64,000 nucleotides of DNA from Bacteroidota bacterium. Its GTDB lineage: Bacteria > Bacteroidota > Bacteroidia > Chitinophagales > CAIODY01. The translations under genes and the position numbers were made by a program. Where the stretch lies: assembly GCA_046051225.1 (NCBI GenBank), contig JBJOOR010000006.1:64161-128160 (forward strand), read 5' to 3'. Below the pieces are notes generated by a model. The model had not been told where the DNA came from and searched no databases. It worked only from the letters and a program-made list of their open reading frames with translations. How positions within the stretch are numbered: position 1 is the stretch's first letter; every line of letters starts with the position of its first letter. This document shows, one piece after another, positions 760 through 57,728 of the stretch.

Positions 760-3700
760 ATGACAAAAAAATATCCCGAACATAAGCAACTATCCTTACC
801 CGAAATTGATAAAAATATTTTATCGTTTTGGTTAGAAAATAAAATTTTTGAACGCAGCATTTCACAACGTGAAGGTGCTGAAAGCTTCGTGTTTTATGAA
901 GGGCCACCAAGTGCTAATGGAATGCCTGGCATTCATCATGTGATGGCTCGAACGATTAAAGATATTTTTTGTCGCTACCAAACCATGAATGGCAAACAGG
1001 TGCATCGCAAAGCAGGTTGGGATACACATGGCTTACCTGTAGAATTGAGTGTGGAAAAGAGTTTGGGCATTACTAAAGAAGACATCGGAAAAAAAATAAC
1101 GGTAGAAGAATACAACAAAAAATGCCGTGAAGAGGTGATGAAATATCAGGATAAATGGGAAGAAGTAACCCGAATGATGGGTTATTGGGTGGATATGACA
1201 CAGCCTTATATCACTTACGAAAACACTTACATCGAATCGCTTTGGTGGATTTTAAAACAATTTTACAACAAAGGATTTTTATACAAAGGCTTAACTATTC
1301 AACCTTACAGTCCTGCTGCTGGCACAGGTTTGAGCAGCCATGAATTAAATCAACCAGGTTGTTATCGGGATGTGAAGGATACAACGGCAGTAGCGATGTT
1401 TAAAATCGAAGAAGAATCTAAAAGTAAATTACCATTCGCTTCAAAGTGGGAAACTTATTTTTTAGCATGGACTACAACGCCATGGACATTGCCATCGAAT
1501 ACGGCATTGGCTGTGGGAGAAAAAATTGATTACGTTGCAGTTGATATTATCCATCCGCATAAACCAGAAAAAGTAGTAACAGTTATTCTTGCAAAAAATC
1601 TTCTAGAAAAACACATTATCCTTGAATCAACTAATGGATTAAAACCTGCATATCCTCATGGAAAAGACGTTTTAGAGGAATCTTCTAAAAATCAAAAAGG
1701 AAAGTCTTTTGCATTGAGTACTCCAATTTCAGAATTCAAAGGCAAAGATTTAGAAGGTATTCGCTACGAACAATTATTGCCGTTTGAAGCCAACACCAAA
1801 GAAAATTTAGAAGGCCCGAAAGACGCATGGAGAGTGATTTGTGGCGATTTTGTAACCACTGAAGATGGAACAGGTATAGTGCATATTGCGCCAAGTTTTG
1901 GTGCTGATGACTTCCGTGTTGCCAAACAAAATAACATCGGTGCATTGACGATGGTGGACAAACGTGGCAAGTTTTTATCGGGCATAAAAGATGGTGTTTA
2001 TCTTTTTGGCGATGAGTTTATTAAAGAGGCATATTTAACCGAAGACGAAAAGAAAATTGAATTTGCGAAGCAGAAACAAATTTTAGAAGCCGCAGGAAAA
2101 GTGAAAGAATTGAAAAGCTATTTGAGTGTGGATACTCGAATCGTTTTGAAATTGCAGGAAGAAGGAAAATTATTTAAAAAAGAAAACTACGAACACAGCT
2201 ACCCACATTGCTGGCGTACTGATAAACCTGTGATTTATTATCCGTTGGATAGTTGGTTTATTGCCGTAACCAAAGTGAAAGAGAAAATGGTGGCGATGAA
2301 TAAAACCATTAATTGGAAGCCCGAAGCCACTGGTATCGGGCGTTTTGGTAATTGGTTAGAAAATGCGAATGATTGGAATTTGAGCAGAAGTAGATTTTGG
2401 GGAACACCATTACCAATTTGGAGAACCGAAGATGGCAGCGAAGAAATCGTGATTGGTTCGATAGAGGAATTGTTGAGTGAAATTGAAAAAGCGCAAAAGG
2501 TTGGTTTCAATTCCGAATTCCGAAATCAACATTCCGAACTCGATTTACATAAACCATTTGTAGATAAAATCACGTTGGTTTCACCGTCAGGCAAACCAAT
2601 GAAACGTGAATCGGATTTAATTGATGTTTGGTTTGATAGTGGCGCCATGCCGCTTGCACAGTGGCATTATCCATTCGAGAACAAAGAAATTTTTGCAAAA
2701 AATTATCCTGCCGATTTCATTGCCGAAGGCGTTGACCAAACTCGTGGATGGTTTTATACATTGCATGCCATCGCAGTAATGTTGCATGAAATTGACCCTG
2801 AAAAATTTGCAGGCGTTGCTTATAAAAATGTAATCAGCAATGGTTTGGTATTGGATAAAAATGGAGAAAAGATGAGCAAACGCTTGGGCAATGCGGTTGA
2901 CCCGTTTGAAGCCATTCCGAAATATGGTGCTGATGCGATTCGTTGGTACATGGTTGAAAATGCCAATCCTTGGGACAATTTAAAATTTGATTTTAATGGC
3001 ATTGATGAAACACGAAGAAAATTTTTCGGCACTCTTTATAATACTTACGGATTTTTTGCCTTGTACGCAAACGTAGATAGATTCAGCTATTCAGAGCCAG
3101 AAGTACTATTAAACGAACGACCAGAAATAGACCGTTGGATAATTTCGTTGCTCCATTCTTTAATCAAAGAAGTGAAAACGGCTTACGATGAATATGAGCC
3201 AACAAAGGCTGCCAGAGCCATTCAGGAGTTTGTGGATGAGCATTTTAGCAATTGGTATATTCGGTTATGCAGAAGAAGATTTTGGAAAGGCGAATACGAG
3301 CAAGATAAAATTGCGGCTTATCAAACTTTGTACACTTGTTTAGAAACTTTGAGTCAGTTGATGAGTCCAGTTGCGCCATTTTTTGCAGAATGGCTTTTCA
3401 AAAATTTGAACGATTCTACTGGAAAAATTAATACTGATTCAGTGCATTTGAGCAATTTTCCAATTGCTAATTCTGCGTTTATTGATAAGGCTTTAGAAGA
3501 ACGAATGCAAATGGCGCAAGATATTTCTTCGTTGGTTTTATCGCTTCGCAAAAAGGTGAATATTAAAGTTCGTCAGCCGTTGCAAAAAATTATTGTTCCA
3601 ATTTTGAATGATGATTTCAAACATCAATTAACAAAAGTTCAAGACTTAATTTTGAGCGAAGTGAATGTGAAAGAATTGGAAATGATAACCGAAACCGAAG

Positions 3701-4236: not shown

Positions 4237-5136
4237 GTGATGGCAAAAAAACCAGCACCGAAAAAGAAAGCTCCGGTAAAACAAAGCAAACCAGCTCCTA
4301 AAAAAGTTGTAAAACCTGCTGCTAAAAAAGTAGTTAAGGCTGCAAAACCTGCTGCTAAAAAAACAGTGGCAAAAAAGGTTGCTTCTAAATCAGTGGCAAA
4401 AAAAGTATCTAAACCAATTGCAAAAGCAAAATCGGTAGCTAAAAAAGTTGCTACGAAGCCGATTGCAAAAAAGATTGTAAAGCCAACTGCAAAAAAAGCT
4501 ACCTCAAAACCAGTTGCAAAAAAGGTTGTAAAACCAGCACCGAAGCCGATTGCAAAAAAGGTAGAACCTAAAAAAGTTGAGAAAGTAAAAGTAAAAGCGG
4601 TTGTTTCTAAAAAAGAAACAAAAAATATGAGTAAAGCAAGTAAAGTGAAGGTAGAAAAACCATCAAAGCGTCAGGTTGATAATACGCCAATTCCTGAATT
4701 AAAACTGCCAATTATGCGAAAAGTTGGTCCTCAACCTATTAAGCGTTCAACCGTAGATTTAACAAGAACTAGATATCCAGATAGTGAATTGAATGAATTT
4801 AGAGATTTGATAAATGATAAAATGCAAAAATCGAAAGAAGAATTGCATTATATTCAAGAGCAAATTACTAAATCGTCTGAAAATTCTACAGCTGATACTG
4901 AAAATAGATTTGGTGGGATGGAAGATGGGGCTGGTACATTAGAACGTGAATATTTGAATCAAATGGCAACAAGATTGGGTACTTTTATTGGTCATTTAGA
5001 AAAAGCATTAATGCGAATTGATAATAAAACTTATGGCATTTGTCGTATTACGGGCAAATTAATATCAAAAGAAAGATTACGTGCTGTTCCTCATGCCACT
5101 TTAAGTTTAGAGGCTAAGGAATTAGAAAAAAGATAG
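4237..5136 (+). CDS. DksA/TraR-family protein with long Lys/Ala/Pro-rich histone-H1-like N-terminal repeat region
   Basis: The C-terminus, NKTYGICRITGKLISKERLRAVPHATLSLEAKE, matches the Bacteroidetes TraR/DksA tail found downstream of ileS. The N-terminal ~125 aa are KKxAKP / PIAKKVV repeats. GTG at 4237 is followed by ATG at 4240. Confidence 0.75.
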   Translation: MMAKKPAPKKKAPVKQSKPAPKKVVKPAAKKVVKAAKPAAKKTVAKKVASKSVAKKVSKPIAKAKSVAKKVATKPIAKKIVKPTAKKATSKPVAKKVVKPAPKPIAKKVEPKKVEKVKVKAVVSKKETKNMSKASKVKVEKPSKRQVDNTPIPELKLPIMRKVGPQPIKRSTVDLTRTRYPDSELNEFRDLINDKMQKSKEELHYIQEQITKSSENSTADTENRFGGMEDGAGTLEREYLNQMATRLGTFIGHLEKALMRIDNKTYGICRITGKLISKERLRAVPHATLSLEAKELEKR

Positions 5137-11238: not shown

Positions 11239-12072
11239 TTATTGTGGTTTAAAATAAAATTTATTGCCGTTGATAATACAATATGGTGGTTCGAATGGTG
11301 GAAAATAGGAGGCTCTTATGTACCGTTTTATTTTTTGTTTGCTCCAAGCCAAATCAATTTGCTTAATATCATTTATTTCATGGCGCAAATGAAAATTTTT
11401 CTTTCTTTTGGTAAATGAATTTTGTGGCAATAAAGTATAATTTCCTTTTATGATATTAGGCAAGGAAGTTTTAAAAAGGCGGATAGAACGATGTTCGGTT
11501 TCATCATACAAATCTTTTACAAAGCAATTTTCTGGTATCTTAAATCTATCTTCAAATACAATATCGCCATTATCAATACCCGATGCTAATTGATGAATAG
11601 TGGTGCCAAACTCTTTAGCTTTATCTATAATAGCAAATGAAAACTGATTGCACCCTCTATAATCGGGCAATGGAGCCATGTGTAGGTTTAAAGCTATTTG
11701 GCTGGCTTTATCTATATGCTGTTGTTGTAATATTTGATGATACTGCACCGAATAAATAATATCGCAATTAGGCATGGCATCAAGCGATGAAATTATTTTT
11801 ATTTTATTATGTTTGGCTAATTGCAGTACGCTTTGGTTTATATTCGGCTTTGCAATAGATTTTTTCGAAAAATGCTTGCTAGCCATCTCCATCTCATCTT
11901 TATTATCTTCAACAGCTAAGAATGGCATTTTTCGAAACCCTATATTATCATTACTTAATACACCAATTATTGTATAATTAAGCTTTTGTTGATTGGCAAT
12001 TAAATGTGCCAAACAATTATAACCAATGGGCTTTGAACCCATAAATATTATTTTTTTAGTTTCAGTTTTCAT
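11239..12072 (-). CDS. formyltransferase-family protein
   Basis: N-terminal IIFMGSKPIG nucleotide-binding start and NLHMAPLPDYRGCN (the HxSLLPxxRG-like formyl-transferase motif). Confidence 0.75.
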   Translation of the reverse strand: MKTETKKIIFMGSKPIGYNCLAHLIANQQKLNYTIIGVLSNDNIGFRKMPFLAVEDNKDEMEMASKHFSKKSIAKPNINQSVLQLAKHNKIKIISSLDAMPNCDIIYSVQYHQILQQQHIDKASQIALNLHMAPLPDYRGCNQFSFAIIDKAKEFGTTIHQLASGIDNGDIVFEDRFKIPENCFVKDLYDETEHRSIRLFKTSLPNIIKGNYTLLPQNSFTKRKKNFHLRHEINDIKQIDLAWSKQKIKRYIRASYFPPFEPPYCIINGNKFYFKPQ

Positions 12073-12123
12073 GGCTTTATTATTTCACAAATTTACAATT
12101 AAACTTTATAGTTTATTAATTAT

Positions 12124-12417
12124 ACTTCGTACTCAAGACTTTAAACTTCGTACTCAAGACTTTAAACTTCGTACTCAAGACATTATACTTCGTACTCAAG
12201 ACTTTAAACTTCGTACTCAAGACATTATACTTCGTACTCAAGACATTATACTTCGTATTCAAGACTTTATACTTCGTACTCAAGACTTTAAACTTCGTAC
12301 TCAAGACATTATACTTCTTACTCAAGACTTTATACTTCGTACTCAAGACTTTAAACTTCGTATTCAAGGCTTTAAACTTCTTACTCAAGACTCTAAACTT
12401 CTTGCCCAAGACTAAAA
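12124..12417 (+). repeat. 14 x 21-bp tandem repeat (consensus acttcgtactcaagactttaa) at the head of cassette array 1
   Basis: Counted directly. Units start at 12124, 12145, 12166 ... 12397. There are two main unit variants (..gactttaa and ..gacattat), and the last three units are degenerate. Confidence 0.95.
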
Positions 12418-12556
12418 ACGAGCAATAAAAAATAGCTGAAAAAAAATAATGGAAAGTAAAAACTTCCTTCTATTTTTGGATAGGATAAAAAGAAAACTGC
12501 CGCAATATACAAATTGGCGGCAAACCGTTTCAAAGACATCAATTCTATTATGAATC
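12418..12556 (+). promoter_or_regulatory. cassette leader copy R1 (-7 box plus TTGGCGGCAA hairpin)
   Basis: tatttttg (TAnnTTTG) at 12471-12478. Inverted repeat ctgccgcaat / attggcggcaa at 12497-12523. The ...caaagacatcaa... tail is shared with R2 and R3, ahead of the ATG at 12557. Confidence 0.55.
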
Positions 12557-13084
12557 ATGGATAAGTTCAAACAACTTTCTCTGGCAAACAAAACGCTTAT
12601 TATTTTAACAAGTGTAATGCTTGTTTATGGTTACTTGTGTCGCCTTTTAGACATTGACTTCTTTTGGGAAAGTAAAATGCTTGGTTGGGCACTTTTAATC
12701 GTAACTTTTATTGGCTTATTGTTGCAACGCATTCAAACAAAAAACAAACAAGACAAAAAAACACTTTCGGAGAATATTGCCATTGGACTTCTTGGAATTA
12801 CTTTTTTGGGATTGTGTGGCTGGTTAGTTTTTATTCCACAAACAGACAGCTATCAATTTGCAAAACAATATTTACTTACTGACAAAACGATTTCAAATGA
12901 ATTGGGTGGAGTGTATAATGTTGTTTTAGTTCCTTACGGCGGCATTACATCTTCCACTTCATACAAAGGCACAACTGGACAAGCTGACTTATACTTTATT
13001 GTAAAAGGGAAACAAAAGTTCAAAGACATTAATGTTGGACTTCATAAAGAAGTATCAGATTCAAATTGGACAATCTTAAAATGA
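12557..13084 (+). CDS. hypothetical membrane protein (cassette gene)
   Basis: 175 aa with three N-terminal hydrophobic helices and a soluble C-terminal domain. Its stop overlaps the next start (ATGA). Confidence 0.6.
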   Translation: MDKFKQLSLANKTLIILTSVMLVYGYLCRLLDIDFFWESKMLGWALLIVTFIGLLLQRIQTKNKQDKKTLSENIAIGLLGITFLGLCGWLVFIPQTDSYQFAKQYLLTDKTISNELGGVYNVVLVPYGGITSSTSYKGTTGQADLYFIVKGKQKFKDINVGLHKEVSDSNWTILK

Positions 13085-13410
13085 AATCATCAATGTTTAA
13101 AACACCATTTAGTTTTGACGGACGTATAAGACGAAAGGAATATTGCCTTTCGTTAATTATATTTATTGGTTGCTTTAGCATTATTGATATTTGTATTGAC
13201 GCTTTACCAAAAGCTGACTTTTTAGAACTGTTGTATATCCCTTTATGTTGGTTCATTTTAGCACAAGGGACGAAAAGATGCCATGACAAAGACAAAGCTG
13301 GTTGGTATCTAATTTATCCAATTTACATTTTCTCAATGATTTTTGCAGACGGCGACAAAAGAGAAAATCAGTATGGACAAAATCCGAAAGAAAACAATAT
13401 TGACTTGTAA
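13081..13410 (+). CDS. DUF805-family inner-membrane protein (cassette gene)
   Basis: FSFDGRIRRKEY ... GTKRCHDKDKAGWY ... NQYGQNP matches the DUF805 (YhaH-like) pattern. The start is taken at ATG 13081 (ATGA overlap) rather than the track start at 13066. Confidence 0.7.
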   Translation: MKSSMFKTPFSFDGRIRRKEYCLSLIIFIGCFSIIDICIDALPKADFLELLYIPLCWFILAQGTKRCHDKDKAGWYLIYPIYIFSMIFADGDKRENQYGQNPKENNIDL

Positions 13411-13526
13411 GACAATTCGGGCAACGCCAACTTGTTGTGGTTTCTATTATCTTTGTGATGGCATACGAAACACAAAGCCGCCCATGCAGCAGAGGTTAGA
13501 AACGTTGGAATCATTTTTATAAAGAC
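13411..13526 (+). promoter_or_regulatory. cassette repeat copy R2
   Basis: gggcaacgccaacttgttgtggtttct-attatctttg(-7 box at 13448-13455)...gccgcccatgcagcagaggttagaaacgttgg. Aligns with the copies at 36.3 and 37.2 kb on the reverse strand. Confidence 0.6.
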
Positions 13527-14171
13527 ATGACATATATCTTGACGATAGTATTTTTCTTTCTATACACTTTCGGACTTTTTTTATGGGACAAGAAAGTTAC
13601 ATGGAGACTTTCGCCTAAAATTTCCAAGACAATTAAATACTTTCACTACGCAGGGTTAAGCATTTTGCTTTTTGTAACAATTATGTATTCGCTTTTTGAC
13701 ATTGGATTACGTGGACAATTAGCAACGAGAGTAATTGAGATTTTTACATTATTAACAGGTTGCACATTCATTCTTATTTCGTCTAAGACAATTAACAATT
13801 GGGTTGAAAAAATTTACTTCAACATTTTTTCATTTTTACCAACAATTATAGGTTCGATTATGTGTATTCCTTTTTTGGGTGTTGTAATAATTATTTCAAT
13901 TTATGGGCATCTCTTTACACCAAACTTTGTATATTATCAAGATAATAAAATTAGAGTAGAAAGTAGTGTTAATAGCCCATTGGCAATTCCCAATACAGAT
14001 ATTTATCGTAAATATTTTCTCTTCGAAAAAAGAATTTATCGTGGTGCATACCTTGGACATGTTGATACTGTTATTGTTCTTTACGACAATGATTCGACAA
14101 GATTAATTGCTAAAACAAATACACAGTATGACGACAGTATTAAAAGAATTACTTTAAGTACAATAAAATAG
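13527..14171 (+). CDS. hypothetical polytopic membrane protein (cassette gene)
   Basis: 214 aa with about 5 hydrophobic segments and then a soluble tail. No recognisable family. Confidence 0.6.
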   Translation: MTYILTIVFFFLYTFGLFLWDKKVTWRLSPKISKTIKYFHYAGLSILLFVTIMYSLFDIGLRGQLATRVIEIFTLLTGCTFILISSKTINNWVEKIYFNIFSFLPTIIGSIMCIPFLGVVIIISIYGHLFTPNFVYYQDNKIRVESSVNSPLAIPNTDIYRKYFLFEKRIYRGAYLGHVDTVIVLYDNDSTRLIAKTNTQYDDSIKRITLSTIK

Positions 14172-14179
14172 CTCAGACA

Positions 14180-14470
14180 ATGACAATTAAAAGGACGATA
14201 ATAATTTTTATTTCAACTTTAGCAGGTTGTATTGTAGGTTTCTTGTTTAATGTTTTCGTTGTCTACAATATTATTATTCCCGACCCATGTTATTATCATA
14301 ATCATGACTTCAAAACGAGTAGGCTATTTAACTTGTTCTATGAAATAACTGGTGCAGAAGGTTATCATCCAACGCCAACAATGTTTAACATCATTTTTGC
14401 TTTGGTAGTTGGGGCATTACTCGGTTTTACATTATCATTTTATAAAACGAAAAAACAAAACAATAATTGA
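14180..14470 (+). CDS. hypothetical small membrane protein (cassette gene)
   Basis: 96 aa with two hydrophobic helices. It sits 8 nt after the previous gene with no repeat copy in between. Confidence 0.55.
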   Translation: MTIKRTIIIFISTLAGCIVGFLFNVFVVYNIIIPDPCYYHNHDFKTSRLFNLFYEITGAEGYHPTPTMFNIIFALVVGALLGFTLSFYKTKKQNNN

Positions 14471-14749
14471 AGAAAAAACAGCCCCAGACCATCGTAGTTT
14501 GTATTTGACAAGCGTATGTCTCCCGACTACGCTTTGGCGGAAAGCAATCTCTGATTGCAAAAACAAAATTATACAGTAGAAGCGAAGCTATGCTTTAGTT
14601 GTGTCGAAGTTCCACTTCGGCACTGCCTGATTCAAAATATTAATTGAACCAAGCAGCACCAAACCTGTCCCGAAGAAATCGGGAGCCCCTTCGCTCAAAA
14701 GCCATACTTCATCTTGGCGATAACATACAGTCGCTTTGCTGTTACGAGA

Positions 14750-14889
14750 CAATTTGAAAGTTCAGTTGTTTAGGCTATTTTTGTTTTCGTGTGACGGCAT
14801 ACGGAACATTAAGCCGCTAATGCAGAAAAGAATAAAAACTTTGGCGGCAATAAATCGGAACAACTTTGCAGACATCAAACAACGACAAA
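14750..14889 (+). promoter_or_regulatory. cassette repeat copy R3 (TTTG-N19-TAnnTTTG promoter plus leader)
   Basis: tttg at 14753-14756, a 19-nt spacer, tatttttg at 14776-14783, then cggc..gccg hairpin and ttggcggcaa at 14841-14850. Confidence 0.6.
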
Positions 14890-15330
14890 ATGAATAAATG
14901 GAAAATTGCTTTTTTGGTTTTCATAACAATTGCTGTTTTTTCGACAATATCTATTTTTGCTCAACAAACCAATAAAGCCGAATTAAGCAAATTAATTATT
15001 GGACAATGGATAAAAAAGATTGACAAAACCAAAGACGGCAAAGAATACTTTGGACTTAAATGCAAAGACACAATACAATATTTAATAAGTGGACAATATA
15101 TTTGGAAACAATGTGGAATTAACGAAACTGGAAACTGGAAAATATCGACAGACAATAAGAAGATTATTTTATACCAGCGAAAATGTAAATACTGGGGAAA
15201 ATATTTACAGACAAAAAACATAGGACAAATGGATATTCCAGTTGTTTCACTGACACAATCTCAACTGGTGACAATTATCTATGACGAAGAAAAGGGTGCA
15301 GTGAATCAGTTTTATAGCAGAACTCAATAA
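14890..15330 (+). CDS. hypothetical secreted protein (cassette gene)
   Basis: Start taken at ATG 14890 (MNKWKIAFLVFITIAVFSTISIFAQQ signal peptide), not the TTG at 14866 used by the ORF track. Confidence 0.6.
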   Translation: MNKWKIAFLVFITIAVFSTISIFAQQTNKAELSKLIIGQWIKKIDKTKDGKEYFGLKCKDTIQYLISGQYIWKQCGINETGNWKISTDNKKIILYQRKCKYWGKYLQTKNIGQMDIPVVSLTQSQLVTIIYDEEKGAVNQFYSRTQ

Positions 15331-15356
15331 AGCTTACACAACCCTGCTCCTTTAAA

Positions 15357-15584
15357 GCATAGCAAAGTGAATAGCCAACGAGGATGCAAAAGGTATTTAG
15401 TTTATAACTAATAAATAAAACTATTGCTACAGCAGTTTAACAAGCAATTTGAAAGTTTGGTTGTTTCTGCTACTTTTGTTTTCGTGTGGCATAGGTTAGA
15501 AACCTTGGGGCAAGCTTTGGGTACACTGCTAACATCAAACTAACTGCAAGAACCGAACAGACAAAACCAATGAGATACTTTTCA
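15357..15584 (+). repeat. cassette repeat copy R4 (228 nt, runs into the first 5 codons of the downstream gene)
   Basis: About 95% identical by eye to 16076-16304. tttg at 15448-15451, N19 spacer, tacttttg at 15471-15478. Ends in atgagatacttttca (MRYFS). Confidence 0.85.
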
Positions 15585-16037
15585 ATCATACTTATATTCA
15601 TCTTTAGTTTTTTAACTGCTTGCAACACTACACAAGTTTTGACACTTAAACACAAAAGATATTATTCGGAACGAAACATTTTAACCAGCGACACTACTCG
15701 TAAATTAATAGAAATGGTTTTCTATAACAAACCTCATATAATGGATGAAGAGTTTTTCTATAAGTTGACCTTTAAATTTATTGATACAACTGCTGCAAAA
15801 CAAAAGCGACTTATAAATTTAGTTGCAGACACTACAATTCTGAAGTGCTACTACTCAATCTTTTCCATTTGGAATTGGTCAGACGAACATTATACCATGA
15901 AAGGCGACATTGAAATAGTTGAATGGAAATACAACAGCATAACTCTCAAAGAAAATGTTTTTATAAACGACATCAGACGAAAAAAGAAATTGAAATTTAA
16001 AGGCAAACGAACATTTATAAAACACGAAGGTTGGTAA
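15570..16037 (+). CDS. hypothetical lipoprotein (cassette gene)
   Basis: MRYFSIILIFIFSFLTAC has a lipobox. 155 aa with no recognisable family. Confidence 0.6.
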   Translation: MRYFSIILIFIFSFLTACNTTQVLTLKHKRYYSERNILTSDTTRKLIEMVFYNKPHIMDEEFFYKLTFKFIDTTAAKQKRLINLVADTTILKCYYSIFSIWNWSDEHYTMKGDIEIVEWKYNSITLKENVFINDIRRKKKLKFKGKRTFIKHEGW

Positions 16038-16075
16038 CAAATATTTTACAACATTTCTGCTCGTCCTCGTTTGGG

Positions 16076-16304
16076 GCATAGCAAAGTGCATAGCCAACGA
16101 GGATGCAAGAGGTATTTAGTTTATAACTTATAAATAAAACTATTGCTACAGCGGCTTAACAAGCAATTTGAAAGTTCGGTTGTTTCTGCTACTTTTGTTT
16201 TCGTGTGGCAGAGGTTAGAAACTTTAGGGGCAAGCTTTGGGGACACTGCTAACATCAAACTAACTGCAAGAACCGAATAGACAAAACCAATGAGATACTT
16301 TTCA
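16076..16304 (+). repeat. cassette repeat copy R5 (229 nt)
   Basis: Near-identical to R4. A 10-bp hairpin (tcctcgtt.gg / ccaacgagga) lies around 16063-16105. The -7 box tacttttg is present. Ends in atgagatacttttca. Confidence 0.85.
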
Positions 16305-16691
16305 CTTGACGAACCACAACTATTAACGCTGCCAAGTAAAGACTGGTGGACAAACCGCAGAAGAAAATACAACATCGGTTTGGTGATTGCTGGTATTACT
16401 GCATTTATTTGTTACGCAATTTTAGGTTCATATTTAATCGCACCATACGACAACGAGTTTGAGATAACACTGTTTACAATTTTCTTTCAAGGCGTTGGCT
16501 ATTTAATTATGATGGCGATTGCAAACCTCTTTTACAATCTTGGTTATTGGGCTGACAAAAATTTTAATAAAGACAATAGTGAGAAATTCAGACAACGAGT
16601 ATTTAGTTTGGGGTTTTGTTTTTCATGTGGGCTTCCATTTTTAATTCCCATGCTGACAATTGTAATATATTTGGTAGAGTATAAAAAGTAA
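16290..16691 (+). CDS. hypothetical membrane protein (cassette gene)
   Basis: 133 aa with three to four hydrophobic helices. It shares only MRYFS with the previous cassette gene. Confidence 0.6.
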   Translation: MRYFSLDEPQLLTLPSKDWWTNRRRKYNIGLVIAGITAFICYAILGSYLIAPYDNEFEITLFTIFFQGVGYLIMMAIANLFYNLGYWADKNFNKDNSEKFRQRVFSLGFCFSCGLPFLIPMLTIVIYLVEYKK

Positions 16692-16736
16692 CCCTGTAGA
16701 AGTTAAGCTGCATTGGTTGTTGTAATCAAAATATAG

Positions 16737-17477
16737 TTAAAATGATTTTTTAACTAAAAATTTTTCTACTTCTAATTGTTTTTTACCCAAACTAAAATTG
16801 GTATTAATCACCATTTCAGCCAATTCAACCAATAAATGCAATTGTTGATTGGGCGTAAGATTACTATTATCTACTTCAATGGCATCATCGGCTTTTCGCA
16901 AAGGGCTTTCGGCTCTGGTGCTGTCAATTCTATCTCGTTGTGCTAAGTTGGTAATCACTTCATCAAGCGTTACAATTTCTTCTTTATTTAATAATTCATC
17001 ATATCGGCGCTGTGCTCTAATAATGGGATGTGCAGTTAAAAATATTTTTAATTCAGCATCATGAAATACCGTAGAGCCAATATCTCTGCCATCCATCACA
17101 ATACCTTTTGTAGCACCAATCTTTCTTTGTTGAGCCACCATTGCATCACGTACAGGTTTTAAAGCACTTACAGGGCTAACAAAATTGCTAACCTCCATAG
17201 TTCGTATTTCTTTTTCTACATTTTTATTATTCAACAATATTTCGGGCTTGGCTTCATTGTTTAATTCAAAATGGATATGAATATTTTGCAAAGCATCCAA
17301 CACAGCATCATTGTTTTCAATATCAATTTTATGCTGCATAAAATATAAAGTTACAGCACGATACATAGCACCCGAATCAACATAAATATATTGTAATTCT
17401 TTTGCCAACTGCCGTGCAACTGTACTTTTTCCGCAAGAAGAAAATCCATCAATGGCTATGATTATTTTTTTCGACAT
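16737..17477 (-). CDS. cmk: (d)CMP kinase
   Basis: IIIAIDGFSSCGKSTVARQLA P-loop, YVDSGAMYRA and the typical Cmk layout. Confidence 0.93.
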   Translation of the reverse strand: MSKKIIIAIDGFSSCGKSTVARQLAKELQYIYVDSGAMYRAVTLYFMQHKIDIENNDAVLDALQNIHIHFELNNEAKPEILLNNKNVEKEIRTMEVSNFVSPVSALKPVRDAMVAQQRKIGATKGIVMDGRDIGSTVFHDAELKIFLTAHPIIRAQRRYDELLNKEEIVTLDEVITNLAQRDRIDSTRAESPLRKADDAIEVDNSNLTPNQQLHLLVELAEMVINTNFSLGKKQLEVEKFLVKKSF

Positions 17478-28982: not shown

Positions 28983-29345
28983 ATGAGCAATTTTAAAACT
29001 TTATTAGCCTATCAAAAAGGATTTGAATTGGCATCTGAATTATTTACTATTTCTAAAACTTTTCCTAAAGAAGAAACCTATTCATTAACCGACCAAGTTA
29101 GGCGTTCATCAAGGTCAGTATGTGCATGCATAGCAGAAGCTTACAGGAAAAGAATTTACCCAGCACATTTTGTTTCAAAGCTTACAGATGCTGATATGGA
29201 AAATGCGGAAACTTTAGTTTGGATTGATTTTGCTGAAAAATGTAATTATATCACTATTGAATTACATCAAAAATTAACTGCAAAAAATGATGAAGTTGGT
29301 AAGTTGATTAACTATATGATAAATCATCCAGATAAATTTAAATGA
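28983..29345 (+). CDS. four-helix-bundle protein (formerly 23S rRNA intervening-sequence protein family)
   Basis: LLAYQKGFELASELFTISKTFPKEETYSLTDQVRRSSRSVCACIAEAY is the family signature. Confidence 0.85.
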   Translation: MSNFKTLLAYQKGFELASELFTISKTFPKEETYSLTDQVRRSSRSVCACIAEAYRKRIYPAHFVSKLTDADMENAETLVWIDFAEKCNYITIELHQKLTAKNDEVGKLINYMINHPDKFK

Positions 29346-35349: not shown

Positions 35350-35357
35350 ATTTTTTC

Positions 35358-35390
35358 ACACCTGACAGGTTTTTAAAACCTGTCAGGTGT
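35358..35390 (+). terminator. 13-bp perfect hairpin immediately after gyrA
   Basis: acacctgacaggt-ttttaaa-acctgtcaggtgt. A second hairpin with a T run follows at 35399-35441. Confidence 0.7.
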
Positions 35391-35441
35391 AATACAAAAC
35401 CGCCCCGAAGTTCAAGATGAATTTTGGGGCGGTTTGTTTTT
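35371..35441 (+). repeat. direct repeat DR-L bounding cassette island 2
   Basis: ttttaaaacctgtcaggtgtaatacaaaaccgccccgaagttcaagatgaattttggggcggtttgttttt. Matches 38566-38637 with 4 substitutions and 1 indel. Confidence 0.9.
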
Positions 35442-35527
35442 GTTCTTCCGAGTTTGCAACTCGGAAAATATATTTGTTGATTTCAAATCAACAGTTAAAA
35501 ATACCGAGTTACAAACTCGACAGAACA

Positions 35528-36190
35528 TCAAGATTGACGGACTGTTGCGTTTCGCTTGTTCTCTTGATAAACTCTATACAAAATATAAATGCAAGCAGCG
35601 GTTATTAAAAATATTCCAAGTTGATTATGATATGCTGGATGGTCAGGTGGTTTTACTTTACCCAAAAAAGTTTTAACAATGAAGCTACTGATGTTGAGTA
35701 AATAAAGAATGATGACAGAATAGAGGAGCTTGTTTAGATATTTATATCTCCAAAGAATGACTGGAATTATTATAATAGATGCAAAAGTAATGACTCCATG
35801 AAGTGTTCCACCAATATCTATTGGTCCATCTAAACTAATTGATTCGCCATGACTTCTGAAACGAAGAATTACAAAAATTAAATGAATTAAATGATTGCAA
35901 GTAAACAAGGTTAGTAAAACCAAAAAAGATTCCTTTTTCTTTTCAGCACTATAAATCTTTTTCAAACCATTGTAACCAACCATTAGTAAAGTGATGAGCA
36001 TAATGAATGATGATATTCTGCCTGCTAAACGAGCACATTTGTCAAAAATAAATTCTCGTTGAATTGCAAAAAAATTATTCAAATCTAAAGTGCTTGTCCA
36101 AGTTGCCCACAAGTAAATTGATAATTCTATGCAACAAATAAGTGCAATCAAAAGTGGTAATCGTTTCTTCGTCAACATAAGTAATTTCAT
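35528..36190 (-). CDS. hypothetical polytopic membrane protein (cassette gene)
   Basis: 220 aa with about 6 hydrophobic helices. No recognisable family. Confidence 0.6.
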   Translation of the reverse strand: MKLLMLTKKRLPLLIALICCIELSIYLWATWTSTLDLNNFFAIQREFIFDKCARLAGRISSFIMLITLLMVGYNGLKKIYSAEKKKESFLVLLTLFTCNHLIHLIFVILRFRSHGESISLDGPIDIGGTLHGVITFASIIIIPVILWRYKYLNKLLYSVIILYLLNISSFIVKTFLGKVKPPDHPAYHNQLGIFLITAACIYILYRVYQENKRNATVRQS

Positions 36191-36403
36191 TTTATTAGGA
36201 TTGAAACGGATTTATGTAACTTTTATTTCTTGTAGTCAGTTTCAAGTTAGCACTGTCGCCACGGGTTGCCGCCAACGTTTCTGGGCTTTGCTGCATGGGC
36301 AGCTTGGTGTTTCCTATGCCGTCTGCCTGCACAAAGGTAATAGAAACCACAACAAGTTGGCGTTGCCCGTTAACCGCCAATGAAGCAAGCCCATGTTAGC
36401 GGT
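36191..36403 (-). repeat. cassette repeat copy R6
   Basis: On the minus strand: accgctaacatgggcttgcttcattggcggttaacgggcaacgccaacttgttgtggtttctat-tacctttg(-7 box, 36332-36339)...agaaacgttggcggcaa(36266-36275)...ATG at 36190. Confidence 0.85.
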
Positions 36404-37079
36404 AGTGCTTTTCTTGTCCGTGTAATGTCTGCAATAATTGTTTGTCAGCGTTTAATTGTTTTGAGTATGCTTTTTTTATGTCGTCAATTGTTATTTTTTT
36501 GTCCAAGTCAATTGCTAATTTGTCAATACTATTTCTGTCGGTGATGAATTTGTTTTTAGCACCGAAGTAGATGTCAAAAATATATTGCGGTGAATATTTT
36601 TGTTCCATACTTCCATAACCTCTGTAAAATTGTCCAAGCACAATGACGTCAGTGAAGCCGTCCGAATTGATGTCAGAAAACGAAACTGCTAAAATTTTTT
36701 CAAAGCAACAGTTTGGATAAGAAAAGTTTGGCGACCGATAGCAAACGCTGTCGTTGAGTTTTAAGTAAAAATTGAAATGACTCCATGATGAGTCTTTTAA
36801 ATTGAGATGTTCTGTGTAATAAAAAAAATAAGCTGAACCTTTTCCATTCAATGTCAAGTGAAATGTTTGCTCGTTAGGATTTTGTTTAGCACCTGTAAAT
36901 GTTGAATGTATGCTGTCCAACGAAACATATTCTGCGTCAGACAAAGGCTTTGGATTTGTCAATGTCATGATGCTGTTGTCTGGCAAACTGTCGAAAAGTT
37001 TTAACCTTTTCTTCGTTGTTTGTCCGAAGCAATTTGTCAAGACAAAAGTCAAAAGAAATATGGAAAATGCTTTGTTCAA
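36396..37079 (-). CDS. hypothetical secreted protein (cassette gene)
   Basis: Signal peptide MNKAFSIFLLTFVLTNCFGQ. The SDINSDGFTDVIVLGQ segment resembles an FG-GAP/calcium-binding loop. Its stop codon lies inside repeat R6. Confidence 0.6.
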   Translation of the reverse strand: MNKAFSIFLLTFVLTNCFGQTTKKRLKLFDSLPDNSIMTLTNPKPLSDAEYVSLDSIHSTFTGAKQNPNEQTFHLTLNGKGSAYFFYYTEHLNLKDSSWSHFNFYLKLNDSVCYRSPNFSYPNCCFEKILAVSFSDINSDGFTDVIVLGQFYRGYGSMEQKYSPQYIFDIYFGAKNKFITDRNSIDKLAIDLDKKITIDDIKKAYSKQLNADKQLLQTLHGQEKHYR

Positions 37080-37290
37080 ATTTGGATTATTTGAAGTCGT
37101 TTTGTCGTCATTGTTTTATTGTCAAAATGAAAATCTATTTCGTCTCAAAGCATTGCCGCCAAAGGTTTTGGGCTTTGCTGCATTGGCGGCTTGGTGTTCC
37201 GTCTGCCGTCTACCTGCACAAAGGTAGTAGAAACCACAACAAGTTGGCGTTGCCCGTCAACGGCCAATGAAGCAAGCCCATGTTAGCGGT
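37080..37290 (-). repeat. cassette repeat copy R7
   Basis: The 138-nt core at 37153-37290 aligns with 36266-36403 and is nearly identical in the promoter-upstream ~75 nt. The -7 box tacctttg is at 37219-37226 (minus strand). Confidence 0.85.
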
Positions 37291-38220: not shown

Positions 38221-38560
38221 TTATTTCAAAAGAGAAGGACTAATCTCAAAACTTAAGTCCGAATTTCTAAAGTAGCGTTCCTATTTCAATATTTGAGTCC
38301 TAATCTGAAAATGTGAGCTTTAATTTTCAAACATGAGTTCAGATTTCCAAAGAAGGATTCTTGTTTCCAAAAGAAGTGTCTTTATTTCCAAAGAAGCATA
38401 CTAATCTGAAATTGTGAGTTCAGATTTTCAAATTAAGGCTCTTATTTCCGAAGAAGTTTCTAAGTTTCAAAATCTGAGCACTAATCTTAAAAAGTGAGTC
38501 TTAATTTTCAAACATGAGTTCAGATTTCCAGATTAGAGTTCTAATTCCCAAAAGTATGTC
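38221..38560 (-). repeat. about 17 x 19-21-bp degenerate tandem repeat at the head of cassette island 2
   Basis: Units such as ttatttccaaagaagcatac, taatctgaaaatgtgagcttt and taattttcaaacatgagttc. A ~60-bp higher-order period is visible: 38301-38360, 38402-38460 and 38482-38541 are alike. Confidence 0.85.
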
Positions 38561-38565
38561 GTTGG

Positions 38566-38637
38566 TTTTAAAAACCTGTCAGGTGTAATACAGAAACGCC
38601 CCGAAGTTCATGATGAATTTCGGGGCGGTTTGTTTTT
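38566..38637 (+). repeat. direct repeat DR-R bounding cassette island 2
   Basis: ttttaaaaacctgtcaggtgtaatacagaaacgccccgaagttcatgatgaatttcggggcggtttgtttttt. Carries only the 3' half of the gyrA hairpin plus the second hairpin and T run. Confidence 0.9.
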
Positions 38638-38660
38638 TCTTTTTTCAATTTTAAACCAAC

Positions 38661-51012: not shown

Positions 51013-51041
51013 AAAAAAGCCCCGATTAAACATATCGGGGC
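51013..51041 (-). terminator. rho-independent terminator after the first M43-like protease gene
   Basis: gccccgat-taaacat-atcggggc, with a T run on the minus strand. Confidence 0.7.
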
Positions 51042-51067
51042 TATAATTGTTTTTTTAATTTATATTC

Positions 51068-52576
51068 TTATTTACTTACCATAACTTTTTCTGTTTTTAA
51101 AATTTTGTTATCGGCGTTTCTTAATTGAACAAAATATTCGCCCGAAGCCCAGTTTGAAGTTTCAACTACTTCGCTTCCGATTGTTGAATGAATAGATTTA
51201 TTCAACAATATTTTTCCATTCAAATCCATTACTGATAAATTATAACCTGCATTATTTTCAGCAACAAAATTTACTAAAAAATAATTTGAAGCAGGATTAG
51301 GAAATATTTTGATATACGAATTGTTACTCAAATCGTTTGTTGATAATGCTTTTGAAGTAATAAACGAATGGGTATTAGTATAAAAACTACTGCAAGTAGC
51401 AGCAGGATTAAATGCAACAACCAACCATTTATAAAATACAGATTCTTTCAAATTATCGTTTGCATAAATATTGGCTGTGGTATCCGAAGTTATTTTACTC
51501 CATACTTGGTTTGTATTGTTGCCTTGCTTATACACTGCTACACAATATTTTGTAGCACCAGCCACACTATGCCATTTAAAATTAATGAAATCGGCAGGCA
51601 AAGTTTCACCATTGGGTGTAATTAATCCTATAGTATCATTTATTTGAGTTGAATTTTGTGGCAGATTCAAATGCCAATTAAAATGAAATGTATCTAACGA
51701 GGCTTGCATGGCAGCTATTTGTTCTTTGCTGAACTTACTTAAACATATATCGTCAAAATTGCTCATATACAATGATGAATCAGTATTTAATGGAACACCG
51801 TTGGGGTCTTTATATCTGCAATGGTTAGATATACAACTTACCCTATCTATATTATAATCTGGTGGCGTATCGCAAAATTTATCTGCCACAGCATGGCAGT
51901 TGCTGCCATCCATTTTTTCTAATGTTTGCGGTACAATATAACCAGCTGATGGCTGATTCCAACAAGAACTATCATATACTTGAATATTTTGAAAAGTATG
52001 CGGCAAACTAAAATAATGACCTATATCATGTGTAAGTACAGTTGAATTTTTACCGCCACAAGCGCCAATCAGTACTACCACATCTCGTGTTGGCGAATAA
52101 TATCCACAAAGCCCTGGAGAACCATTAACAAAAAAAATATTTATAGCATTTAAAGTAAAATGCTTACTGCTTTGCATAATAGAATCTGCCATAGGATTAG
52201 TTTCTGAAGCATCATTATAAAACAAAGTATTGTTTATATAATCAATATCCTGATATAGAAAAAAATGGAAATTGATTGAATCTCTGGTAAAACGCATATT
52301 CAAATCGCATATATCATCAAATAATTTTTGAAGTGGGTAATAGCCCGTATGATCATCATTCCCTACAATATGAGCTTTGATAGGAATATAAATAGTAGTG
52401 TTTTTCTTTTTTCTGTATTGTGGCAATCCATCATTGCGTTGGTATGCATCAAGCCAATCTGCTTGTGTTTTACTTAATTCGGTGTTGCATCGGCTAGGTC
52501 TTTCGGTAGTTTGAGCATTTGCATTGTTGCTAAACAATAGAATAATGAAAACTAAAAAAATGAAATTATTTTTCAT
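51068..52576 (-). CDS. M43 (pappalysin/cytophagalysin)-like protein with T9SS CTD; zinc motif reads HDIGH
   Basis: VLTHDIGHYFSLPHTF (codons cat gat ata ggt cat checked on the DNA), a signal peptide, and the C-terminal IFPNP... CTD. Confidence 0.8.
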   Translation of the reverse strand: MKNNFIFLVFIILLFSNNANAQTTERPSRCNTELSKTQADWLDAYQRNDGLPQYRKKKNTTIYIPIKAHIVGNDDHTGYYPLQKLFDDICDLNMRFTRDSINFHFFLYQDIDYINNTLFYNDASETNPMADSIMQSSKHFTLNAINIFFVNGSPGLCGYYSPTRDVVVLIGACGGKNSTVLTHDIGHYFSLPHTFQNIQVYDSSCWNQPSAGYIVPQTLEKMDGSNCHAVADKFCDTPPDYNIDRVSCISNHCRYKDPNGVPLNTDSSLYMSNFDDICLSKFSKEQIAAMQASLDTFHFNWHLNLPQNSTQINDTIGLITPNGETLPADFINFKWHSVAGATKYCVAVYKQGNNTNQVWSKITSDTTANIYANDNLKESVFYKWLVVAFNPAATCSSFYTNTHSFITSKALSTNDLSNNSYIKIFPNPASNYFLVNFVAENNAGYNLSVMDLNGKILLNKSIHSTIGSEVVETSNWASGEYFVQLRNADNKILKTEKVMVSK

Positions 52577-52599
52577 GATAAATTATTTTATGATGAATT

Positions 52600-52648
52600 A
52601 AAAAGCCCTGTACAAATATGGTGGTTTATACAGGGCTATATTTTTTTT
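52600..52648. terminator. hairpin terminator between the two protease paralogs
   Basis: agccctgta ... tacagggct flanked by A and T runs. Confidence 0.65.
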
Positions 52649-52663
52649 GAAAATCTATTTTTA

Positions 52664-54178
52664 TTATTTACTTACCATAACTTTTTCTGTTTTTAAAATT
52701 TTGTTATCGGCGTTTCTTAATTGAACAAAATATTCGCCCGAAGCCCAGTTTGAAGTTTCAACTACTTCTGTTCTGCCATTAGCAGCAATTTGTTTGTTAT
52801 AAACTTGTTTGCCCGAAATATCAAATACCGTAAGTGTATAATTTCCAACAGTTGTTTCAGAAATATAATTTACAATAAAATAATTATTTACAGGGTTAGG
52901 ATAAATTTTGAAAGATGAAACAGAAGAAATAGTATTAATACCTGTAGCAGCCGAAGGAGAGAATTGAACAGCTGCGCCAAAAGTACCACATGGTTTACCA
53001 GGATTATATGCCATTACTTTAATATTATACAATACATTTTCAACCAAATTTGCATTAGCATAAAATGCAGCAAAAGTATCAGTAGTCATTACACTCCAAA
53101 CTTGGTTTGTAGCATTACCTTGCTTATAAATAGCCACACAATATTTGGTAGCACCAGGTACAGATGTCCAACTACATGTAACAAAATCGGCAGGTGGTGT
53201 ATCAATTGTATTAGGTGTTATTAAAGTAGGCGTACCTGTAACGGCATTAAAGTTTTGAGCAAGATTTAATAAATAACCAGCACGAACTGTATTATAATTA
53301 GCTTGCATAGCGCCTCGTTGCTCATGGCTAAAACGAGTAACACAAATATCATCAGCATAACTCATGTATAAAGAACTGTCTGGTCTAACAACTACGCCAT
53401 TTGGGTCTTTTCTTAGTGTGCAGATAAATGGGCATGCCCATCTATCAGGATTGTAATCGGCTTTTGTATCACAAAATTTATCGCCAGCTACATAGCAATT
53501 GCTACGATCTACTTTTTCTGGATTTGTTGGTTTCGACATACCTGTTTTTACAATGGTATCACAGTTAGCATCCCATACACCTTCCCAGCCATTAAAAGTA
53601 TGAGGTAAGCTAAAATAATGTCCTACTTCATGAGCAACTGTGGTTGCATTATGACCACCACAAGCGCCAATAATAACTACTACATCTAATCCTGGAGAGA
53701 AATAGCCGCATAAGCCTGGCGATGCAGAAACGAAGAACATATTTAAAGCACCCGAACGATGGTGTAAAGAGCTATTCATGATAGAATTTGCCATTGGGTT
53801 AGTTTGCGAACCATCATTATAAAATGAAGTATTATTAATGTAATCAATATCTTCATATAAAAAGAAATGGATACCAATAGAATCTCTATCGTAACGCATG
53901 TTTAATTCGCATACATCGGCAAATAATTTTTGTAAATCATAATACCCCGAACCATCATCTTTTCCTACTATATGCGCCTTAATAGGCACATATACAGAAT
54001 AAGTGTTTTTTTTGCGATACACTTCCGAAGCATCATTACGTTGGTATTCATCTAACCAATCTAATTGGGCTTTACTTAGTTTAGTGCCACACCAATTTGA
54101 TGGTTTCGCATCTTGTGCATTTACTTTTGCAAAGCAAAGCATCATTAAGAGTAGATAAGTAAAAGTTTTTTTAATCAT
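52664..54178 (-). CDS. M43-like zinc metalloprotease with T9SS CTD
   Basis: VAHEVGHYFSLPHTF (HExxH). Start taken at ATG 54178 (MIKKTFTYLLLMMLCFAKVNAQ signal peptide) rather than the track start at 54262. Confidence 0.8.
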   Translation of the reverse strand: MIKKTFTYLLLMMLCFAKVNAQDAKPSNWCGTKLSKAQLDWLDEYQRNDASEVYRKKNTYSVYVPIKAHIVGKDDGSGYYDLQKLFADVCELNMRYDRDSIGIHFFLYEDIDYINNTSFYNDGSQTNPMANSIMNSSLHHRSGALNMFFVSASPGLCGYFSPGLDVVVIIGACGGHNATTVAHEVGHYFSLPHTFNGWEGVWDANCDTIVKTGMSKPTNPEKVDRSNCYVAGDKFCDTKADYNPDRWACPFICTLRKDPNGVVVRPDSSLYMSYADDICVTRFSHEQRGAMQANYNTVRAGYLLNLAQNFNAVTGTPTLITPNTIDTPPADFVTCSWTSVPGATKYCVAIYKQGNATNQVWSVMTTDTFAAFYANANLVENVLYNIKVMAYNPGKPCGTFGAAVQFSPSAATGINTISSVSSFKIYPNPVNNYFIVNYISETTVGNYTLTVFDISGKQVYNKQIAANGRTEVVETSNWASGEYFVQLRNADNKILKTEKVMVSK

Positions 54179-57656: not shown

Positions 57657-57728
57657 TTCATCACCATTTACAGCGATGTAGTGCCTGATGTTTTAGACCA
57701 AATTATGCGAATAATAGAATGTAATTAA
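57657..57728 (+). pseudogene. orphaned ancestral 3' end of cphA
   Basis: Reads FITIYSDVVPDVLDQIMRIIECN*, against the FITICSDVVPDALDQIMR-LKEEEGAVVV* tail of the intact gene. Confidence 0.65.

Follow-up and report, generated by a model that had tools for sequence, protein, structure and literature searches.

How do two proteins that have nothing else in common come to begin with the same five residues? The question is raised by a 64,000-nt stretch of DNA from a Bacteroidota bacterium (assembly GCA_046051225.1, contig JBJOOR010000006.1, positions 64,161 to 128,160; "the window" below means this whole stretch), where two copies of a repeat of ~228 nt precede a lipoprotein gene and a membrane-protein gene and supply both with the start MRYFS. 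A previous reading, made from the letters alone (the sequence-only reading), proposed that new cargo is recombined into a fixed promoter–leader–ATG module, with a candidate crossover point directly behind the start codon. We consider it probable that a local duplication by illegitimate recombination carried a promoter, its leader, the ATG and four further codons onto a neighbouring gene, i.e., that this is a case of promoter propagation, or capture; on this view, a lineage-specific family of intergenic promoter–leader modules, which we regard as putative mobile promoters, has the two copies as its youngest pair.

The repeat pair and the two genes that it starts

The copies, called A and B or, as members of the family described below, M4 and M5 (Table 1), align over 229 columns, in which they differ by 10 substitutions and a single 1-nt indel (95.2% identity, E ~1e-99), in agreement with the two ~228-nt copies, ~95% identical, reported in the sequence-only reading. 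Probes placed across the ATG (a 20-mer) and at the 5' end of the repeat (a 33-mer) occur exactly twice each in the window, against 0.00–0.02 occurrences expected, and the longest perfectly identical stretch between the copies is 35 nt. The repeat has 213 nt 5' of the ATG, and its shared tract also takes in ATGAGATACTTTTCA (15570-15584 and 16290-16304), with identity lost right after; the identity thus continues, as had been stated, 15 nt into each of the two open reading frames (ORFs), and both of them begin with MRYFS. The copies are co-oriented with the genes; by eye, the 228-nt unit has no terminal inverted repeats, nor was a target-site duplication recognised. The minus-strand ORFs that overlap the repeat (15470-15655 and 16121-16375) are not of equal extent at the two copies and were dismissed as spurious.

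Because the contig comes from a metagenome, and repeats such as these interrupt short-read assemblies, the arrangement might be thought to come from a misassembly that duplicated or chimerised a repeat; we hold this to be highly improbable. The copies differ at 11 positions, and thus no identical segment has been duplicated or collapsed. The same sequence is found in the JGI metagenome 3300047563 (contig Ga0485292_000007, 275 kb) and in the NCBI record of the metagenome-assembled genome (MAG; 192 kb, locus tags RJA07_14xx), hence the arrangement is present on several long contigs, and in a separate Logan assembly a unitig that opens with copy-B-specific bases runs on into the membrane-protein gene. 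The GC content is 33%; the type IX secretion genes of the window (PorP/SprF, Por_Secre_tail) are in keeping with Bacteroidota.

The two downstream proteins are unrelated and not diverged paralogues: BLASTP aligns MRYFS only, the probability of a profile–profile match (hhalign) is 0.5%, and the topologies differ, with a signal peptide in one protein and three hydrophobic segments in the other; on this point the sequence-only reading was right. In the lipoprotein, the signal peptide and the lipobox MRYFSIILIFIFSFLTAC precede any alternative start codon, and the sole detectable homologue (50–53% identity) has the same full-length layout and a lipobox of its own, MKRLILTYCILIILTSC; therefore the 155-aa call of NCBI is correct and the 98-aa call of JGI is too short. 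In the membrane protein, no alternative in-frame start stands ahead of the conserved motif WW..RR.KYN. Both ORFs thus need the repeat-borne ATG. The membrane protein has more than 150 homologues across Bacteroidota, whose N-termini are variable up to WW..RR.KYN (18 homologues compared), and none of the ~25 inspected homologues starts with MRYFS.

The closest relative of the membrane-protein gene, P0002 on a 999-nt Logan contig from another metagenome (L003), shows that the junction is a graft. It is 93% identical in DNA sequence, and the homology is limited to positions 16307-16691 of the window, starting 2 nt past the end of the repeat and halting exactly at the stop codon; both flanks of the contig are unrelated to the window, and ten codons, MEHKHIEFTT, stand in place of the MRYFSL of the window. 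Thus, given that the homology is confined to the gene body and that the N-terminus differs, the repeat has, in the lineage of the window, taken the place of the native promoter region of the gene and of about ten codons at its N-terminus. The sequence-only reading had taken the boundary between shared and unique sequence inside the coding region for a recombination junction, and this comparison bears it out. A possible module upstream of the relative on L003 was dropped, as the local alignments were unconvincing.

Two observations on these and other array genes may be added. In another Bacteroidota lineage, a homologue of the membrane protein (74% identity; L004 9965-10393, also L006) is encoded 36 nt downstream of lepA without a module; elsewhere, then, this is a normal chromosomal gene family. 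The JGI calls are shorter for several array genes, namely 15570-16037 (98 vs. 155 aa) and 13527-14171 (162 vs. 214 aa) in the first array and 36396-37079 (190 vs. 227 aa) and 35528-36190 (194 vs. 220 aa) in the second; NCBI uses the long forms for the 155-aa and 214-aa genes.

A family of promoter–leader modules in gene arrays

The readable DNA amounts to 82 kb of one genome, and all counts of family members, MRYFS starts and recombinases refer to it. An nhmmer profile and self-BLAST reveal at least seven promoter–leader modules there, six of them in the window; outside it, on the same contig, M0 lies just upstream (E 6e-35) and a weak eighth copy downstream. The promoter core of M3, an older member, is 89–91% identical to that of M4/M5 over 44 nt, and its leader homology reaches M3's own ATG.

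The box TACTTTTG of both repeat copies matches the published −7 element of Bacteroidetes, TANNTTTG, refined to TAHHTTTG (PMC6847099), and is of the sigma-ABfr type; TAHHTTTG occupies the same alignment column in every module. The predicted leader of ~86 nt is rich in A, and shuffled sequence folds as well as it does (z +1.0 and +1.2). In Bacteroidetes, which lack Shine–Dalgarno (SD) sequences, initiation is tuned by low structure at about −20 to +20 (PMC6847099); since SD-less initiation regions favour low structure there, a leader of this kind fits such a region. Rfam covariance models gave no match at the gathering score in the window, and at E <= 1 only a snoRNA match at chance level (11900-16800); a known structured RNA leader (riboswitch, attenuator etc.) was rejected accordingly.

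The 10-bp hairpin described before copy B does exist: it has a folding energy of −24.2 kcal/mol in its 76-nt context (z −3.1). Its proposed role as a terminator of the upstream cassette did not hold up, as it has no T-run, is not called by the terminator scan and is absent at copy A, where the equivalent site does not fold (z +0.15). In the leaders of M1, M3, M7, and M8 there is a possible hairpin GCCGCC...GGCGGC, and a conserved block GACGGCATACGNAACANNAAGCCGC is found in the leaders of several modules (these sites lie at 13470-13510, 14795-14850, 36270-36330, 37160-37215, and 12500-12535). Both are deleted in M4/M5, which hints at different regulation; the copies are too few to test covariation.

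The shared tracts end at four different positions, and ATG+15 is reached by the pair M4/M5 only. The end points thus vary among the leader, the ATG, and ATG+15, and the fixed promoter–leader–ATG module with a defined crossover after the ATG is not supported; variable end points of this kind were what the sequence-only reading itself had named as speaking against it. Left edges vary too: the upstream 227-aa gene takes its stop codon from the first bases of M8, CCGCTAA (36396-36404, minus strand), and the same CCGCTAA lies 50 nt past a stop codon in M7 and 4 nt past one in M0. The modules are mosaic as well; the left halves of M0, M7, and M8 are ~92% identical, and the right halves of M7 and M8 match at only 50 of 85 aligned positions. 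Variable end points and mosaic modules together speak against a fixed ATG crossover; they favour a segment with a promoter that was copied or recombined repeatedly and imprecisely. At 37076-37111 (minus strand), the 227-aa gene apparently has TTG as its start codon, and an upstream ORF of 11 codons, whose ATG lies inside M7, overlaps this TTG.

The sequence-only reading had suggested checking whether other cassette proteins begin with MRYFS, and none of the nine other array proteins does; their starts include MDKFK, MKSSM, MTYIL, MTIKR, MNKWK, MGIFD, MNKAF, and MKLLM. The idea of new cargo recombined into a module thus survives in part: a promoter, leader and ATG have been grafted onto a foreign gene body, and modules do stand before the genes of co-oriented arrays, but the crossover is not fixed, and neither the called genes (Pfam) of the 82 kb nor our own scans yielded an integrase, transposase or other recombinase. 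An inverted-repeat scan found no conserved site at the edges of the array 1 modules or at the junction, and by eye the GTTGACG/GTTAACG of M7/M8 do not fit GTTRRRY.

Outside this genome, the searches for modules were negative. Exact leader and promoter 22-mers had no match in the GTDB representative genomes, the leader 22-mer had none in the JGI metagenome collection (from which the source sample is apparently absent), the leader 22-mer and a 21-nt promoter pattern with one N had none in IMG/VR, and BLAST of the repeat against plasmids and phages gave no match. Synteny was followed via cmk: the 44 metagenome loci (<=58% identity) show no synteny and no module, and the closest cmk relatives in the protein database (75–76% identical) have different neighbours and no module. 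In 90% protein clusters, the array proteins have members from this MAG only. On these grounds, the module family looks lineage-specific.

The cargo of the arrays is annotated as DUF805, DUF4304, and weak FG-GAP matches only; NCBIfam and PADLOC scans of the cargo genes gave no defence or immunity annotation, no dedicated immunity-family library having been searched. The composition is not foreign, with 33.3% and 34.7% GC in the arrays vs. 33.1% in the window.

All sizeable tandem-repeat arrays in the 82 kb are upstream heads of module-bearing gene arrays in the same orientation (Table 1). Two array heads 17 kb apart, 12331-12555 and, upstream of it on the same contig, L054 4100-4336 (minus), are 75.5% identical over 245 nt, comprising the 21-nt repeat family and the first promoter region, and these homologous heads drive different genes, for a 175-aa membrane protein and for a PIN_12-domain protein. 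The heads adjoin a formyltransferase gene and a glyoxalase-family gene. Array 2 (38563-35461, minus) is bracketed by a 93-nt direct repeat (35351-35460 and 38564-38656; 85–93% identical), namely the hairpin that the upstream glyoxalase-family gene has as its terminator; the downstream copy ends in a perfect 11-9-11 palindrome, CACCTGACAGG-TTTTTAAAA-CCTGTCAGGTG (35359-35389), of which the upstream copy has the left half only. By their sequence, these brackets look like an insertion with a duplicated attachment site. A tail element with 43-nt inverted arms (GTTCTGTCGAGTTTGTAACTCG...CGAGTTGCAAACTCG) is shared by 35441-35541, after the last gene of array 2, and by L054 ~2795-2895 (minus), after a module without a cargo gene directly behind it. 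In array 1, between the 96-aa gene and M3, a stretch of 265 nt (14471-14735) lacks a convincing ORF, the sole call being one of 54 aa on the minus strand; a decayed cassette or a non-coding RNA may lie here.

Elsewhere in the window, two neighbouring Por_Secre_tail paralogues share ~68% identity over 1.4 kb (51038-54081), a 63-nt repeat (92%) occurs inside or beside the cyanophycin synthetase region (56969-57031 and 57657-57719), and a gene for a stand-alone 23S-rRNA-IVP/bAvd-like four-helix bundle lies at 28983-29345.

Table 1. Repeat copies, modules, their end points, and associated features; coordinates refer to the window unless another contig is named.
Feature	Position (strand)	Description
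Repeat copy A, module M4	15357-15584 (+)	~85-nt 5' spacer, predicted promoter, ~86-nt leader, ATG and four codons of the lipoprotein gene
Repeat copy B, module M5	16076-16304 (+)	95.2% identical to copy A; gives ATG and four codons to the membrane-protein gene
−7 box TACTTTTG, copy A	15471-15478 (+)	Predicted transcription start near 15483
−7 box TACTTTTG, copy B	16190-16197 (+)	Predicted transcription start near 16202
Lipoprotein gene	15570-16037 (+)	155 aa, lipobox MRYFSIILIFIFSFLTAC, signal peptide only
Membrane-protein gene	16290-16691 (+)	133 aa, three hydrophobic segments, chimeric N-terminus; family widespread in Bacteroidota
Graft junction	16303-16307 (+)	Repeat identity ends at 16304, body homology to L003 starts at 16307; microhomology of at most ~4 nt (CACT)
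Hairpin	16063-16105 (+)	Straddles the left boundary of copy B; of its two arms, the right one alone belongs to the repeat
Module M2	13418-13532 (+)	Upstream of the 214-aa gene; shared tract stops at AAACGTTGG, 20 nt before the ATG
Module M3	14735-14890 (+)	Older member, upstream of the 146-aa gene (MNKWK)
Module M7	37099-37290 (−)	Second array; 37275-37099 in the nhmmer profile
Module M8	36213-36404 (−)	Second array; left half ~92% identical to M7, right half nearer M4/M5 than M7
End point, M0 and M2		AAACGTT, in the leader
End point, M7 vs. M8		91% over 138 nt; just past GGCGGCAA, 63–65 nt upstream of the start codons
End point, M3 vs. M4/M5		About the ATG
End point, M4 vs. M5		ATG+15
Array 1 head	12120-12556 (+)	14 copies of a 21-nt tandem repeat and the first promoter region
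Tandem-repeat head	12120-12413	21 nt, 14 copies
Tandem-repeat head	38243-38554	~20 nt, degenerate
Tandem-repeat head	L056 15169-15702	Two 41-nt families
Tandem-repeat head	L054 4256-4315, ~4380-4640	21 nt, three copies, and ~62-nt units (by eye)

How the shared start may have arisen

Under promoter propagation, the modules precede genes for small envelope proteins that are grouped in co-oriented arrays, and each module, with its −7 box and A-rich, unstructured leader of ~85 nt, would bring signals for transcription and for SD-independent translation initiation to whatever lies downstream. The 228-nt unit would have been duplicated locally, 720 bp apart, with a right breakpoint 15 nt inside the coding region, by which the promoter, the 5' untranslated region (5'UTR), the ATG, and codons 2–5 would have been joined to the body of an unrelated neighbour. 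The membrane-protein gene would thereby have exchanged about ten of its native N-terminal codons for MRYFS(L), a change likely tolerated because that tail is not conserved in the family. We infer that the recombination was illegitimate or microhomology-mediated rather than site-specific. The copied tract, up to +15, would span most of the translation initiation region, which is a plausible reason why such a graft would function.

Several points weigh against this explanation. The boxes are presumed to be active promoters from their conservation. Either gene may be the original owner of MRYFS, and the graft may have run in either direction: MRYFS fits as the normal n-region of a lipoprotein signal peptide, and a grafted one would fit equally, while the similarity of M3 to the two copies (88.6% vs. 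90.9% over 44 nt) is not informative as to donor and recipient. The end of the L003 homology exactly at the stop codon and the upstream stop codon supplied by M8 are more precise than random breakpoints usually give. M0 and M2 break at the same AAACGTT, and the modules are mosaic around AAACNTTGGCGGCAA; this could reflect a preferred recombination site. Finally, the searches cover 82 kb of one genome, and a trans-acting recombinase or more MRYFS cassettes could lie elsewhere.

The same data can be read as homologous exchange. If the modules served as portable shared homology for RecA-type swapping or insertion of gene bodies between arrays or with incoming DNA, the 720-bp lipoprotein unit, i.e., the module and gene body, would have entered an existing unit of module and membrane-protein gene as a circle or by double crossover. 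Flanked by direct repeats, the unit has the shape that such an insertion would leave; the modules are mosaic, the right half of M8 being nearer to M4/M5; the body of the membrane-protein gene has its 93%-identical counterpart in another context, with ORF-limited homology; and the array heads and tails are repeated. However, the exchange presupposes MRYFS already on both genes and leaves the chimeric start unexplained, the longest identical stretch between the copies (35 nt) is short for it, no second MRYFS cassette and no polymorphic arrangement occur in any assembly seen, and no related module was found in the other genomes searched, hence we consider this course of events unlikely. A gene-conversion event is, in our view, rather improbable: both genes would have had older diverged modules, of which a recent tract homogenised 228 nt. 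The older members M2 and M3 do neighbour each other in the same array, and weak residual similarity (CTGCTC...TTT) persists immediately left of the repeat, but a conversion tract should end within prior homology, and here it ends inside two unrelated coding sequences; moreover, the nearest relative shows that the N-terminus of the membrane-protein gene was replaced, not merely homogenised.

Site-specific recombination in an integron-like system, with cargo recombined into a fixed module just after the start codon as in the sequence-only reading, would account for a junction inside the coding region, for arrays in which small unrelated genes of one orientation alternate with related repeats, for the homology to L003 stopping exactly at the stop codon, and for array 2 being bracketed by a 93-nt direct repeat with a palindrome. 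We nevertheless judge it very improbable, given the four different tract end points, of which only that of M4/M5 reaches ATG+15, the absence of MRYFS from the other array proteins and of an integrase from the 82 kb, the lack of a conserved inverted-repeat site at the junction, and the hairpin found at one copy only. A more novel reading, which we find unlikely, is that the arrays are an undescribed cassette system of an uncultured Bacteroidota lineage where the promoter module does the jobs of both attC and Pc as an exchange junction for gene bodies and the recombinase is encoded elsewhere. Its layout may comprise a head (20/21/41-nt tandem repeats and the first promoter), gene–module units, and an inverted-repeat tail, inserted as units next to terminators, and the MRYFS junction, the M8 stop codon, and the ORF-exact homology to L003 may be footprints of gene-body-precise recombination. 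It is kept alive by the repeat heads, the homology between heads, the shared tail, the brackets of array 2, and that same ORF-exact homology.

Comparison with known systems and significance

Of the phenomena described so far, putative mobile promoters come nearest. They have been defined by an identity of 80% or more, across 50 nt or more, upstream of non-homologous genes in one genome; they have no associated known mobile element, their mobilisation mechanism is unknown, and cases extending into the ORF were filtered from the survey (Matus-Garcia, Nijveen and van Passel, 2012; PMC3575422). The modules are alike in that M4/M5 (95.2% over 229 columns) and M7/M8 (91% over 138 nt) exceed this identity and the genes downstream of M4 and M5 are not paralogous. 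They differ in that at least seven members are clustered in co-oriented arrays rather than scattered as pairs, and in that the youngest pair includes the start codon and five codons in all, producing a chimeric N-terminus in an SD-less host. Promoter capture by duplication is also known from the cit amplification in the E. coli long-term evolution experiment (cited in PMC3575422). There, as here, a local duplication puts a promoter before a different gene; however, the cit duplication is tandem, with an intact downstream gene and no shared start codon, whereas here the 5' coding end of the recipient has been replaced. Correia elements, ERIC, and REPIN (cited in PMC3575422) are likewise short intergenic repeats that bring promoters and are able to overlap ORFs, but the 228-nt unit differs from them in having, by eye, no terminal inverted repeats and no recognised target-site duplication, and in that its copies are oriented with the genes.

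Among gene-capture platforms, the rAID-1 arrays of Bacteroidales (Ross et al., bioRxiv 10.1101/471110), which open with a conserved recombinase of the XerD family and are further marked by immunity genes and a skewed GC content, are comparable in belonging to Bacteroidota and in their long co-oriented arrays of small unrelated genes with repetitive integron-like intergenic sequence. In contrast, the arrays studied here have no recombinase at their heads or in the 82 kb, their GC is not skewed, and the host is not a gut Bacteroidales.

Integrons consist of the integrase IntI, the attI site, and cassettes with attC sites (R''/L''/L'/R', GTTRRRY) expressed from the Pc promoter, the cassettes being usually promoterless. 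Co-oriented unrelated cassettes, related repeats between them, and expression signals provided by the platform are common to both systems; unlike integrons, the arrays have no IntI in the 82 kb, each module has its own −7 box, the repeat boundaries are variable, and no attC-like R''/L''/L'/R' architecture is seen by eye.

If the arrays did turn out to be a cassette system, the range of gene-capture platforms would be widened beyond integrons and rAID-1. Read as promoter propagation, the repeat pair is a clean, datable case in which a bacterial gene exchanged, all at once, its first codons and start codon together with the 5'UTR and promoter, with the ancestral 5' end of the recipient still recognisable in a close relative. 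The module family as a whole offers a natural series for studying how promoters spread within a genome, and in SD-less Bacteroidota, copying the start of another gene may be an effective way of making a newly placed gene expressible.

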